This document shows, piece after piece, positions 52,901 through 58,900 of a stretch of DNA of 64,000 bases; the first letter of the stretch is position 1, and each line of letters opens with the position of its first letter. The position numbers were made by a program. Source of the stretch: Escherichia coli (GTDB lineage: Bacteria > Pseudomonadota > Gammaproteobacteria > Enterobacterales > Enterobacteriaceae); assembly GCF_013122565.1 (NCBI RefSeq), contig NZ_CP053258.1. One strand, written 5' to 3'.

Positions 52901-55900
52901 CTAATGCTTTCCAGGTAACCAAACATCTCATCTCCTGCGGCGCAAAGCGTATCGCACACATCACCGGAGAGAGTTGGATGGAGGCCTCTCGACAGCGTTT
53001 GGCGGGCTATCAGGCAGCGCTGCAACAGGCTGGATTAGCCTGCGATGATAGCCTGGTGCGCCAAACCAACTGGCAATTCAGCGAGTCCTTCACTGCAACC
53101 ACTTCTCTGCTGGAGCTAACCGAGCGGCCGGACGCCATTTTCTGTGCCAGCGATTGGCTGGCGATAGGCTGTTATCAGGCTTTGGCTGTAAACGGTATTA
53201 GTATACCACAGGATATGCTGCTGGCGGGTTATGATGATCAGAAGATATCCGAACAACTCACTCCACCACTGACCAGTATCCAGCTACCCTATAGCGAACT
53301 GGGACGGCTGGCAGTGGAGTACCTTTGCAATCAGGAAGACGCTGCCACACATGTAACACTGGCAGGCAGGCTAAAAGTGCGGGCTTCGAGTCTTTTCTGA
53401 GGTAACTGTCGGTTGTTTTGTTATGCGCGCCATTCGCTACTCAACGCTTTCTTCTGACAGCATGTTGCTATAATGTAAAATATACTCAGCCATCTCCGGA
53501 GAATCGAAATGGAACTTCGCCAGTTACGTTATTTTGTCCGTATTGTGGAAACCGGCAGTATGGGCAGCGCGGCGCTTGATCTCGACATCGGTGTCTCAGC
53601 GCTCAGTCAACAGATGACAAGGCTGGAAAATGAACTCGCCATTCGTCTGTTGCAACGAACCTCGCGTGGCGTAACGCCAACTAACTCGGGTCTGGCCTTT
53701 TACTCACAGGCACAGCTGGCGTTGCGTCATGCTGATGATGCCATTCTTGCTGCGCGCGATGCACGTCTGTCAGGACACGTCAGCGTCGGTATGGCCCCCA
53801 GTACAGCCTCCGTCCTGGGGGTGCCGTTTATTCATGCCATGCGGGCACATTACGCCGACGTTCGCCTGCATGTGGTGGAAAGCCTGTCAGGTAATCTGGA
53901 ACGGATGATCAACACCCGTCAGATTGATCTGGCCGTTGTTTTTCGGAAAGAAAAGCACCTGCGCTGGAGCGCCAGGCCAGTTCTCGAAGAGCAGCTTTTT
54001 CTGATTGGCACACATGATCTGCTGACGGATATTCCGGATGACACCATAACCCCTGCTCAACTGACGAATATTCCCCTGATCATGCCAAGCTCAGGCCACG
54101 GCTTGCGCGGCCTACTGGAGGCTATTTGTCAGGAACACGGGCTGAAGGTTGATATCGCCACGGAAATTGATGGCCTGACGTTACTGATGCGCGCCGTTGG
54201 CAGCGGACTCGGTGCAACATTACAACCCGGAGCAGCCATTTCGCATCTTGAGGGTGAAGCATTAAGAGTGATCGGCATCCATAATCCCATACTCAGCCGC
54301 CCCAATTTTCTGGTCAGCCTATCGGACGATGAACTCCCGCCCGCCGCTCTTGCAGCCCGCGTGATACTTACAAAAGTCATGCGTAAACTTGTTGAAATCG
54401 GCCATTGGCCGGGCGCAACCATTTACGCTCCCTAAACCCCCCTTTAGTTATTCGTTATAGCGCTTACACAACACACGAACATACACTTCATTTACAAATT
54501 TAACAGATGGTTAAAAGGTAGTGGAGTAGACGATGGTTGATGTACTGGTGATTGGCGGTGGTAATGCCGCGCTATGCGCCGCCTTAACCGCTCGTGAGGC
54601 AGGAGCTTCCGTGCTGCTGTTAGAGGCTGCGCCTAGGGAATGGCGCGGCGGGAATTCCCAACACACGCGCAATTTACGCTGTATGCACGATGCACCACAG
54701 GATGTGCTGGTCGAGAGTTATCCCGAAGAGGAATTCTGGCAGGATCTCTGGCGTGTCACCGAAGGCAATACCAATGAAGCGTTGGCGCGCTTGGTGATTC
54801 GAACCTCTTCCCAGTGTCGTGACTGGATGCGTCAGCATGGGGTTAATTTTCAGCCTCCGCTTTCCGGCGCGCTGCATGTGGCGCGCACCAATGCCTTCTT
54901 CATGGGCGGTGGTAAAGCCCTCGTGAACGCCTATTACCGCAGTGCAGAAAAGCTGGGGGTACAGATTCGCTACAGCACGCCGGTACAGGCGCTTGAATTG
55001 CACAACGGCAAATTCGTCGCAGCCCTGGCAGGTCACGAACGCATTGAGGCGAAAGCCTGCGTACTCGCCGCCGGCGGGTTTGAATCCAACCGCGAATGGC
55101 TACGCGACGCCTGGGGAGAGAACGCACGTGGCGAATGGCCAGCCGATAATTTCCTCATTCGCGGCACCCGCTTTAATCAGGGCGTCTTGCTCAAATTTAT
55201 GATCAATGCCGGGGCAGACATTATCGGTGATCCGTCTCAGTCCCATTGTGTGGCGATTGATGCACGGGCACCGTTGTACGACGGCGGCATTTGTACCCGC
55301 GTGGATTGTGTCTCACTGGGTGTGGTAGTCAACCGGGATGCAGAACGCTTTTACGATGAAGGGGAAGATTTTTGGCCGAAACGCTATGCCATCTGGGGAC
55401 GTCTGGTTGCCCACCAACCGGGGCAGATTGGCTACTCCATTATCGACAGCAAAGCGATCGGCCACTTTATGCCGCCAGTTTTCCCCGGCGCACAGGCCAA
55501 TACGCTAAGAGATCTGGCCCGCCAGTTGGGGCTGGATCCCGAACACTTTACCCACACCGTGGAACACTTCAATCAGGCCTGTCAGCTGGGTCAGTTTGAT
55601 CACACGAAGCTGGACAACTGCGCGACGCAGGGCCTGATTCCACCGAAAACCCACTGGGCGCGGCCTATTGATACGCCCCCCTACTACGGTTATGCCCTGC
55701 GACCAGGAATCACCTTTACCTATCTCGGGCTGAAAGTAAATGAACACGCTGCGGTTCATTTCGCAGGCACCCCCAGCCCTAACCTGTTCGTTGCCGGTGA
55801 AATGATGGCAGGCAATGTACTGGGTAAGGGCTATACCGCCGGGGTCGGGATGTCCATTGGCACCACGTTTGGTCGCATCGCTGGTAAAGAAGCCGCTCAG

Positions 55901-58900
55901 GCAGCACGCAAGGAGACGCATCATGAAGCAGCTTGAAAAGTTGATTATCGAGGCCAAAATTCTCACCGAACCAGAGGCTGAAGTCGAGCGGGTGATGCAT
56001 GTGTGTAACGCATGTCGCTATTGCGAAGGATTTTGCGCCGTGTTCCCGGCAATGACTCAACGACTGGAATTTGGCAAAGCCGACATTAACTATCTGGCAA
56101 ATCTGTGCCATAACTGCGGCGCTTGCCTACACGCCTGCCAGTATGCTCCCCCCCATGAGTTTGGGATCAACGTGCCGAAAGCAATGGCAGAGGTACGTCT
56201 GGAAACTTATCAACAGTACGCGCAACCGGCGGTCTTCGGGGCGCTGTATCGCCGGGCTGGCGTCACCGTGACGCTGGCACTGGTCTTAAGTATGTTCCTC
56301 TTTTTACTCCTGGCGATGGGGCTGAAGGGATCGCTGCTCCACCCACCGCTGGCCGGTGATTTCTACCAAATCTTCCCGCACAACCTGCTGGCCTGGATGT
56401 TTGGATCGGTATTCATTCTGGCTATTGGTTTACTGATGGTAGGGGTGATCCGCTTCTGGCGCGAGATTTCTCCCGTCGGGCCGCGCCCAGCGGAAATTGC
56501 CGAAGCGTCGAGCAACGCGCTAACGCTAAAATATCTTGACGGCGGACATGGCAAAGGGTGCAACGAAGCGGACGATGCTTTCACATTGATGCGTCGTCGT
56601 TTCCACCATTTCACCTTCTACGGCTTTATGCTCTGTTTCGCCGCGACCATGGTGGCGACGGGTTACCACTACTTTGCTAGTTGGGAAGCCCCCTACCCAT
56701 TCTTCAGTGTGCCGGTCATGCTTGGCACGTTAGGAGGAGTCGGTTTAATCGTAGGCCCGGCAGGCCTGCTGTGGTTAAACCTTAAGCGCTCGCCACTGCA
56801 TGGCGATGCGCGACAGAAACCGATGGATCGGGGATTTATTTTACTACTGCTCCTGACCAGCCTCACCGGTTTAGGTTTGCTGGTGGGAAGAGATACCTCA
56901 TGGATGGGGATCCTGCTTGCCATCCATCTTGGCGTGGTCATGGCGCTTTTTTTAACAATTCCGTACGGAAAATTTGCCCACGGATTTTACCGCTGCGCGT
57001 CTTTACTCAAATGGGCGATCGAGAAGCGACGTGGAAAACAGGCGGGGGTCGCAAGCGACTGACCCGCACACTCTTACCTCTATACATAATTATGATAAGG
57101 CAATGGAGCAACCTCAATGACTCAACAACCATCGCGTACCGGCACGTTCGGCGCAATACTCCGTGTTACCAGCGGTAATTTTCTCGAACAGTTCGATTTT
57201 TTCCTGTTTGGTTTTTACGCTACTTATATCGCAAAGACGTTTTTTCCTGCCGAAAGTGAGTTTGCCGCATTAATGCTTACTTTTGCCGTTTTTGGCTCCG
57301 GCTTTTTAATGCGCCCTATCGGGGCCGTGGTATTGGGTGCATATATCGACAGAATTGGGCGACGGAAAGGGCTGATGGTTACCCTGGCGATTATGGGCTG
57401 CGGCACGATGCTCATCGCCCTCGTTCCGGGTTATCAGACTATCGGCCTGCTGGCCCCTGTACTGGTCCTGGTGGGGCGTCTGCTACAGGGATTTTCTGCT
57501 GGAGTCGAACTGGGCGGCGTCTCTGTTTATCTTTCTGAGATCGCCACACCAGGCAATAAAGGCTTTTATACCAGTTGGCAATCGGCCAGCCAGCAGGTGG
57601 CGATTGTGGTCGCCGCGCTGATCGGGTACGGTCTGAATGCCACGCTGGGACACGATGAAATCTCCGAATGGGGTTGGCGAATACCGTTCTTCATTGGCTG
57701 CATGATTATTCCGCTGATTTTTGTTCTGCGACGTTCGCTTCAGGAAACTGAAACCTTTTTACAGCGTAAACACCGTCCGGACACCCGGGAAATTTTTACC
57801 ACCATTGCTAAAAACTGGCGTATTATCACTGCGGGAACCCTGCTGGTGGCGATGACGACCACGACATTTTATTTTATTACCGTCTATACCCCCACTTACG
57901 GGAGAACGGTGTTGAACCTGAGCGCACGTGATAGTCTGATCGTCACTATGCTGGTAGGGATTTCTAACTTTATATGGCTGCCGATTGGCGGCGCGATCTC
58001 TGACCGGATTGGGCGTCTCCCGGTGCTAATGGGCATCACCTTACTCGCCATCGTCACCACCTGGCCGGTGATGCACTGGCTTACCGCTGCACCTGACGTC
58101 ACCCGCATGACACTGGTGCTGCTCTGGTTCTCGTTCTTTTTTGGGATGTATAACGGTGCAATGGTAGCAGCCCTGACAGAAGTGATGCCGGTTTATGTCC
58201 GAACCGTGGGTTTTTCGCTGGCCTTTAGTCTCGCCACGGCGATTTTCGGCGGCCTGACACCAGCCATCTCCACTGCATTGGTCCAGTTGACAGGCGATAA
58301 AAGTTCTCCTGGATGGTGGCTAATGTGCGCTGCGCTGTGCGGGCTCGCCGCGACGACAATACTGTTTGCTCGTCTCAGTAGTGGTTATCAGACAGTAAAA
58401 AATAAGCTCTGAAACGCAAGCAGGCAGAGATATATGTCTGCCTGCTTTCTCCAGTGCGCCGTAAACCGTGGGCAGCGTGGCACGGGAGTTACGTCACCGG
58501 GCTCTATGCCAACAGTTCAGTGAGTTCGCCGGCGCATCGATGGCTGGTTATGCCAGCAATGTTCAGAGGGAAGAATATTCGTGTGATCATAGCTTGCTTA
58601 TTCCTTGCCTGGGTTAAATTTTCAGACGGCTCAATCCATAAAACCGGTGACTGGGATTAACGTAAGTACGCCCTCTTTCCATCAACACTTCAGGCAGCTT
58701 GCGGGAATGAGTCCACTCCGGTATCAGAAATGACTATGCCTCAGAAGACAGGCGACTAACGATGTCACCACAGCAGCCTATACTGTCGGTTACGAAAGCT
58801 TATCCCATTTCAGTCGGGAATATTCGCGGATGTTTGGAGAGTCACCTAAGAGAGATATTGCCAGATTAAGAAAGTCTGTCGATCAGCTTTAATAAACCCT

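Follow-up and report, generated by a model that had tools for sequence, protein, structure and literature searches.

We analysed a window of 64,000 nucleotides (nt) from Escherichia coli (assembly GCF_013122565.1, contig NZ_CP053258.1; positions are those of this whole stretch) and found that region 53509-58412 very probably is a functional-looking, horizontally acquired module for tricarballylate catabolism, consisting of the regulatory gene tcuR and the genes tcuABC. Four intact genes on the + strand span this region, according to the listing of open reading frames (ORFs) and direct reading of the junctions. An earlier note on this DNA had described a LysR regulator, a flavin adenine dinucleotide (FAD) dehydrogenase, a membrane Fe-S protein with two cysteine clusters and a major facilitator superfamily (MFS) transporter in the order of the Salmonella tcuRABC system, and all four ORFs were recovered in that order and at those positions. 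The comparison with the Salmonella Tcu proteins proposed in the note gave high identities in global alignments with the chromosomally encoded proteins (83.8, 91.0, 87.3 and 92.1% for TcuR, TcuA, TcuB and TcuC, respectively), and sequence evidence thus supports its tcuRABC interpretation.

The proteins were assigned with the hidden Markov models (HMMs) of NCBIfam at their curated cut-offs (369 bits for the TcuA model NF006130, 524 bits for the TcuB model NF011607, 445 bits for the TcuC model NF011656 and 372.6 bits for TIGR02485). TcuA scored 786.1 bits with the equivalog NF006130 and 682.2 bits with TIGR02485, TcuB scored 707 bits with NF011607 and 390 bits with TIGR02484 (still bearing the short name 'CitB'), and the transporter scored 726.8 bits with NF011656 and also matched the metabolite/H+ symporter model TIGR00883. 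The N-terminus of TcuA (VLVIGGGNAALCAA) contains the GxGxxA motif of dinucleotide (FAD) binding as GGGNAA at residues 8-13, in agreement with the Pfam family FAD_binding_2. TcuB carries two ferredoxin-type CxxCxxCxxxC motifs at residues 28-38 and 62-72, both of which precede about 5-6 hydrophobic segments located between residues 114 and 346. With HMM scores of 786 bits (cut-off 369), 707 bits (cut-off 524) and 727 bits (cut-off 445), the pattern is not a product of chance. A local Pfam scan returned no family for TcuB, for whose Salmonella orthologue precomputed Pfam data give PF27541 (CitB), and a search for solved structural relatives of TcuB found none. TcuR contains the LysR helix-turn-helix and substrate-binding domains. 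In protein clusters built at 90% identity, TcuA is mixed with TcuB (cluster 2) and TcuB with TcuC (cluster 3), presumably a database artefact arising from fused or mis-called products across the overlap of tcuA and tcuB.

Some features recall other flavoprotein/Fe-S systems, namely CobZ-type precorrin-3B synthase, soluble fumarate reductase or a QmoC-like complex. TIGR02485 bears the legacy name 'CobZ_N-term', database relatives are in some cases labelled CobZ or fumarate reductase, TcuB matches QmoC weakly, and among solved structures flavocytochrome c fumarate reductases come nearest to TcuA (E = 5e-21). Yet QmoC reached 101 bits against a cut-off of 300 and flavocytochrome c 98 against 285, compared to 700-790 bits for the Tcu models, and the proteins are 87-92% identical to genetically and biochemically characterised Salmonella proteins, so that we give this reading practically no credence. 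A better match to another flavoprotein/Fe-S system, which the earlier note had named as an outcome that would speak against Tcu, did not appear: the next-best NCBIfam scores, 116 bits for TcuA and the above QmoC score for TcuB, are far below cut-off. The fumarate reductases (PDB 1d4c and 1qjd) belong to the same FAD-binding fold family as TcuA (aligned residues 2-460) and perform similar chemistry, a C-C/C=C redox reaction on a carboxylate, but they are distant (78 bits), soluble, fused to haem and devoid of a TcuB-type membrane partner. A CobZ would be expected to replace CobG within a cluster for cobalamin biosynthesis, but the gene in the window has a LysR regulator, tcuB, an MFS transporter and sugar-utilisation and adhesin genes as neighbours, and no cob genes are adjacent. 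The CobZ, fumarate reductase and QmoC-like identities were rejected on the basis of HMM scores and genomic context and are effectively refuted.

As Salmonella reference we used the contig encoding the top database relative of TcuA, a Salmonella cluster of 3,278 member sequences with 91% identity. The locus order on this contig is fur-tcuR-tcuA-tcuB-tcuC-ybfN-chiP-glnS, and its tcuC starts with MAQHTP, in agreement with a published primer for stm0689 of strain LT2 (PMC10468695). In Salmonella enterica serovar Typhimurium LT2, the tcuRABC genes (STM0692-STM0689) match those of the window in number, order, strand and cysteine motifs; TcuR, TcuA and TcuB have identical lengths (308, 467 and 379 amino acids (aa)), and the chromosomal tcuA and tcuB of Salmonella likewise overlap by 14 nt (9391-9404 of locus L083). 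The two systems differ in the length of TcuC (431 aa in the window, 434 aa in Salmonella) and in their genomic site, which is the hipA-yneL island in the window and the fur-chiP interval in Salmonella. In PMC10468695 and PMC8593673, Salmonella TcuA is described as tricarballylate dehydrogenase, with cis-aconitate as its product, TcuB as an FADH2:quinone oxidoreductase with 4Fe-4S clusters and haem, and TcuC as a proton symporter; both papers cite Lewis et al. 2004, 2006 and 2007 for these functions.

The coordinates of the genes, their signals and other features of the region are compiled in Table 1. The mechanically called ORF of tcuB opens at 55815, and the start homologous to that of its relatives is the ATG at 55923; this ATG is the likely start because AAGGAG precedes it and because the resulting 379 aa equal the length found in all homologues. 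With the TGA stop codon of tcuA at 55934-55936, the two genes overlap by exactly 14 nt (55923-55936), which bears out the overlap claimed in the earlier note. Further GGAG ribosome-binding sites precede tcuA (54523-54526) and tcuC (57105-57108). The putative tcuR promoter falls within the segment common to plasmid copies of the cluster; as the total of promoter-like sites in the region does not exceed that of shuffled sequence, it is a candidate only. The arms of the terminator (58418-58447) measure 15 nt each, are 93% complementary, follow each other without a gap and are succeeded by a T-rich tail, and the terminator scan scored this same hairpin behind tcuC as a stem of 7 pairs with a loop of 8 nt. 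Lewis et al. 2004 reportedly found tcuR of Salmonella to be transcribed apart from tcuABC, so that 'tcuR plus a tcuABC operon' is a more accurate wording than a single four-gene operon.

Table 1. Coordinates of the tcu genes, their signals and surrounding features in the window.
Feature	Position	Strand	Description	Basis
tcuR	53509..54435	+	LysR-type regulator, 308 aa	Pfam HTH_1 and LysR_substrate
tcuA	54533..55936	+	FAD-dependent tricarballylate dehydrogenase, 467 aa	NCBIfam HMMs and Salmonella identity
tcuB	55923..57062	+	membrane 4Fe-4S electron-transfer protein, 379 aa	NCBIfam HMMs and Cys motifs
tcuC-type gene	57117..58412	+	MFS tricarboxylate/proton symporter, 431 aa	NCBIfam HMMs and Salmonella identity
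candidate sigma-70 promoter of tcuR	53454..53481	+	CTGACA-16-TAAAAT, 10/12 matches, 28 nt 5' of tcuR ATG	consensus scan
tcuR-tcuA spacer	54436..54532	+	conserved blocks, two dyads, tcuA Shine-Dalgarno GGAG	eight-locus alignment
Shine-Dalgarno AAGGAG of tcuB	55910..55915	+	within tcuA 3' end, 7 nt ahead of tcuB ATG	direct reading
intrinsic terminator after tcuC	58418..58452	+	arms AAGCAGGCAGAGATA/TATGTCTGCCTGCTT, then TCTC	inverted-repeat and terminator scans
tcu segment also present on IncHI1/IncFII plasmids and at further E. coli chromosomal sites	53406..58577	+	5,172 bp	nucleotide homology
K-12-absent island	43791..58700		about 14.9 kb between hipA and yneL remnant	BLASTN of window against K-12 1578000-1600000
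GPH-family glycoside symporter	49656-51071	-		
cellulase-family/GH5-like hydrolase	51122-52207	-	no NCBIfam match	
LacI-type regulator	52393-53400	+		

The spacer between tcuR and tcuA was aligned across eight loci (E. coli, R27, an IncFII plasmid, Salmonella, Citrobacter, Raoultella, Entomohabitans and Pluralibacter). The mean column identity is 79%, and the invariant runs coincide with conserved blocks, among them ATACAYTT..TTACAAATTTAACA, which is conserved across genera. Two dyads were found, CTAAA-N6-TTTAG at 54432-54447 and TTAAC-N5-GTTAA at 54500-54514, the latter enclosing a T-N11-A motif at 54501-54513. These blocks and dyads are candidate TcuR operator sites or a candidate tcuA promoter; the dyads would be compatible with LysR control and prove nothing. 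The choice of these sites relied on conservation across genera only, since a sigma-70 consensus scan of the spacer gave no tcuA promoter. A terminator scan of the spacer found none.

The sequence itself shows the identity, integrity, motifs and synteny of the genes, their rarity in E. coli and their absence from K-12; as to whether they are expressed, which substrates they serve, how they are regulated and whether their translation is coupled, we infer the following. By homology with Salmonella, the MFS symporter TcuC would import tricarballylate together with protons, and the flavoenzyme TcuA would oxidise it to cis-aconitate with reduction of its FAD. TcuB would reoxidise the FADH2 via two [4Fe-4S] clusters (and haem, as in Salmonella) and pass the electrons to the respiratory chain; these roles of TcuA and TcuB are judged from 87-91% identity to the Salmonella proteins. 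With the aconitase of the host, cis-aconitate would then feed into the Krebs cycle. TcuR, a LysR protein, is expected to activate tcuABC in the presence of tricarballylate, and the overlap with the Shine-Dalgarno sequence inside tcuA probably couples the translation of tcuA and tcuB. The transporter probably admits citrate as well, which would result in an aerobic citrate-positive phenotype. For this strain, we thus predict growth on tricarballylate and, probably, aerobic growth on citrate.

Several observations weigh against a tricarballylate module of this kind. The sigma-70 scan of the spacer left tcuA without a consensus promoter, as would be expected if the promoter were activator-dependent, so that a tcuA promoter is only putative. 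No NCBIfam HMM matched TcuR at cut-off (the best, NAC, gave 185 bits against 309), so that the assignment of TcuR is based on orthology and synteny. The NCBI pipeline names the transporter 'MFS transporter' and not TcuC, and the nucleotide identity of the cluster to the Salmonella operon amounts to only about 79%. The predicted citrate phenotype is weakened by its basis in old plasmid genetics and in one result of Lewis et al. 2004, who reportedly saw K-12 grow on citrate when given tcuC alone.

The missing consensus promoter is also what one would see if the cluster were present but cryptic, that is, unexpressed or unusable for want of inducer, outer-membrane uptake or Fe-S maturation capacity. 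In line with this, the homologues on plasmid R27 show no temperature induction and modest read counts (R27 transcriptome paper), and Salmonella requires ApbC or extra IscU to grow on tricarballylate, a compound that is toxic to its isocitrate dehydrogenase (PMC8593673). Full-length reading frames in all four genes, good ribosome-binding sites, a terminator and the conservation of the spacer blocks across genera argue for a working system. The E. coli background would also suffice, as K-12 provided with tcuABC reportedly grew on tricarballylate in the work of Lewis et al. 2004. On balance, we regard a cryptic cluster as improbable and retain the functional module as the preferred reading.

The nearest relatives of the cluster are plasmid-borne IncHI1 genes (95-98% protein identity) and not the chromosomal operon of Salmonella. 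Segment 53406-58577 shares 94.6-95.8% nucleotide identity with IncHI1 plasmids from Salmonella and E. coli, R27 (94.6%) among them, and 95.8% with each of the chromosomal copies of TW10590 and PSJ-22. The proteins are 97.7, 96.8, 95.0 and 96.8% identical to TcuR, TcuA, TcuB and TcuC of R27, respectively, with the same lengths (including a 431-aa transporter), colinearity across 5,172 bp and again a 14-nt overlap of tcuA and tcuB (8518-8531 of locus L002). A set of IncFII plasmids, in which the cluster adjoins repA, is about 92% identical to the tcu segment. Chromosomal tcu clusters of Salmonella, Citrobacter and a Raoultella metagenome-assembled genome (MAG) reach only 79-80% nucleotide identity, and a donor search covering one genome per species gave best identities of only about 80% (Raoultella MAG, Citrobacter and Salmonella). 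The R27 transcriptome paper lists R0144 as citA (citrate-proton symport), R0145 as citB (citrate utilisation), R0146 as ifcA (tricarballylate dehydrogenase), R0147 as nac and R0148 as transposase, and the RefSeq order on R27, MFS-tcuB-tcuA-tcuR-ISNCY transposase, agrees with R0144-R0148. Unlike the R27 copy, which adjoins an ISNCY transposase, the window copy lacks such a neighbour and is flanked by different sequence on either side; when examined for carriage by a plasmid or transposon, it proved to be chromosomal, between hipA and yneL. Hence, the chromosomal 'tricarballylate utilisation' and the IncHI1 'citrate utilisation' labels denote one module.

Comparative papers on IncHI1 plasmids report that they carry a 'citrate operon' or citrate-utilisation genes, and the literature attributes citrate-positive E. 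coli to such plasmids. The module of the window belongs to this plasmid 'citrate operon' clade of tcuRABC, and because its nearest relatives are IncHI1 'citrate operon' genes, the strain is likely to have aerobic use of citrate as a second phenotype. The historical Cit determinant of plasmids and transposons in atypical E. coli (Ishiguro, 1978-79; Sasatsu, 1985, for citA/citB; Tn3411) reportedly encodes a CitA carrier of 431 aa and a CitB of 379 aa, lengths equal to those in the window; the window copy is not flanked by insertion sequence (IS) elements.

These relationships raise the question of whether E. coli keeps the module chiefly for the aerobic uptake of citrate (the classical plasmid 'Cit' trait), with the transporter as the selected part and tcuA and tcuB as passengers or serving tricarballylate alone. 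This reading overlaps with, and does not exclude, tricarballylate catabolism. Besides the kinship with citA/citB of R27 and the IncHI1 literature, it draws on the UniRef label 'Citrate-proton symporter', given to the exact sequence of the window transporter as well as to Salmonella TcuC, and on the fact that 27 of the 38 tcu occurrences in E. coli reside on plasmids (the remaining 11 are chromosomal). However, all four genes are intact and kept together in every full-length E. coli copy, which argues for selection of the whole pathway because citrate use would need the transporter only, and neither TcuA nor TcuB is known to take part in citrate metabolism. We therefore judge citrate uptake as the main reason for retention to be rather unlikely, and keep to tricarballylate catabolism as the primary function with citrate uptake as a probable addition.

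Within E. coli, the 4.9-kb cluster matched 37 of 20,395 records searched, belonging to 36 of the 5,426 complete genomes; when tcuAB served as query at higher sensitivity, 35 of the 5,426 matched. RefSeq names the loci that are 99.8-99.9% identical to the window cluster tcuR, tcuA, tcuB and 'MFS transporter', and the cluster is accordingly rare in E. coli and already known and named in public annotation. The claim of the earlier note that K-12 lacks this operon held: none of the 37 records, with every match listed, is K-12, and the hipA-yneL region of K-12 aligns to the window only outside 43791-58700. Lewis et al. 2004 likewise reportedly stated that K-12 is without tcuRABC. The discovery value is small, as the system has been characterised in Salmonella and is annotated in E. 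coli RefSeq genomes; the interest lies in the two atypical phenotypes predicted above, of which aerobic citrate growth is a trait separating E. coli from other enterics. In one strain, UTME-7, there are two tcu modules that belong to different clades, one on the chromosome (NZ_CP169029.1, 2454792-2459695) that is 99.9% identical to the window and one on a plasmid (NZ_CP169030.1, 58568-63470) with 92.2% identity.

The module forms part of an island absent from K-12 that contains aah-aidA, a block encoding a GPH symporter, a GH5-like enzyme and a LacI regulator, and tcuRABC. On its left, window 34543-43790 aligns to K-12 from lsrK through hipA; on its right, 58701-59149 is a remnant of the yneL pseudogene (91% identity to K-12) and 62427-64000 aligns to ydeT. 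The homology to R27, TW10590 and PSJ-22 begins at 53406 and, for R27 and TW10590, ends at 58577. A discrete mobile element was considered for this 5,172-bp segment and dropped: its ends match at 17 of 60 positions and have no terminal repeats, and a search for terminal inverted or direct repeats or IS elements at 53406 and 58577 found none. The sequence that R27, TW10590 and PSJ-22 have in common continues leftward beyond 53406, and that of R27 and TW10590 continues rightward beyond 58577; these positions are therefore junctions specific to the window lineage and not element ends. At least four other contexts of tcu were seen, namely a different island at the same yneL/fimbrial locus (TW10590), a chromosomal island unrelated to it (PSJ-22), and plasmids of the IncHI1 and IncFII types. 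From these comparisons, the hipA-yneL/fimbrial interval behaves as an integration hotspot with accessory cargo differing between strains: the cargo upstream of the module in TW10590 differs from that of the window (DEAD-box helicase and sigma-factor-like protein), and a PrlF antitoxin pseudogene lies downstream.

A tentative scenario, which we consider possible though short of even odds, is that the plasmid 'citrate operon' clade was captured into the chromosome at the hipA-yneL hotspot, beside the AIDA-I/heptosyltransferase pair and the glycoside block, to give stable, plasmid-independent citrate- and tricarballylate-positive E. coli adapted to the gut of plant-fed pigs or ruminants, where tricarballylate forms. 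If true, such chromosomal capture would confound the classical identification of E. coli as citrate-negative.

A wider survey listed 80 related loci from other species (one genome per species, Salmonella not among them). Of these listed matches, 79 have tcuB next to tcuA, 67 have a TcuR homologue upstream and 18 an MFS TcuC downstream. On these counts, the R-A-B core is general and the MFS transporter mainly enterobacterial. The tcuRAB loci of Bordetella, Cupriavidus, Paraburkholderia and Achromobacter encode TcuA proteins of 78-84% identity, with tcuB adjacent and the LysR gene upstream; most of the proteobacterial tcuRAB loci differ from the window in lacking an MFS TcuC beside tcuB, and in many of them tcuA and tcuB are separated instead of overlapping. 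In Citrobacter youngae and Citrobacter sp. (L003, L005 and L006), tcuRAB show 90-93% protein identity and the homology stops just past tcuB, with no TcuC-type MFS gene adjacent in these three loci. This implies that loci without TcuC, in Citrobacter and in most betaproteobacterial cases, use another uptake system.

Some further observations concern individual tcu copies. In IncFII plasmids of about 77-100 kb (L085, H76, H78 and H83-H87), tcuR opens about 1 kb 3' of repA, near coordinate ~1853; this near-constant coordinate suggests a conserved backbone position. In plasmid pVTB584v-2, tcuC is interrupted by IS26. The module of TW10590 (L086, 6898-13400), 95.8% identical, sits at the same yneL/fimA junction.

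Among the neighbours in the window, positions 44148-48910 (- strand) encode an intact AIDA-I autotransporter adhesin of 1195 aa (NF033176, 2438 bits where the cut-off is 1200) together with its Aah/TibC O-heptosyltransferase (TIGR04414, 602 bits), on the chromosomal island that also contains tcuRABC. At the aidA site, the genomes closest to this one retain just a truncated autotransporter and an IS3 remnant, and intact copies of aidA elsewhere match, at about 95%, plasmids of pig enterotoxigenic E. coli (ETEC); among complete E. coli genomes, none spans 80% or more of window 43000-53500. The small sugar-utilisation block between aidA and tcuR (49656-53400) occurs in complete genomes only alongside six tcu loci that are 99.8% identical. 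Beyond the island, the yde fimbrial operon is complete in the window (fimA-like gene 59278-59889 and chaperone 60241-60960, then the usher), whereas K-12 lacks 59150-62426 and keeps only the truncated usher ydeT.

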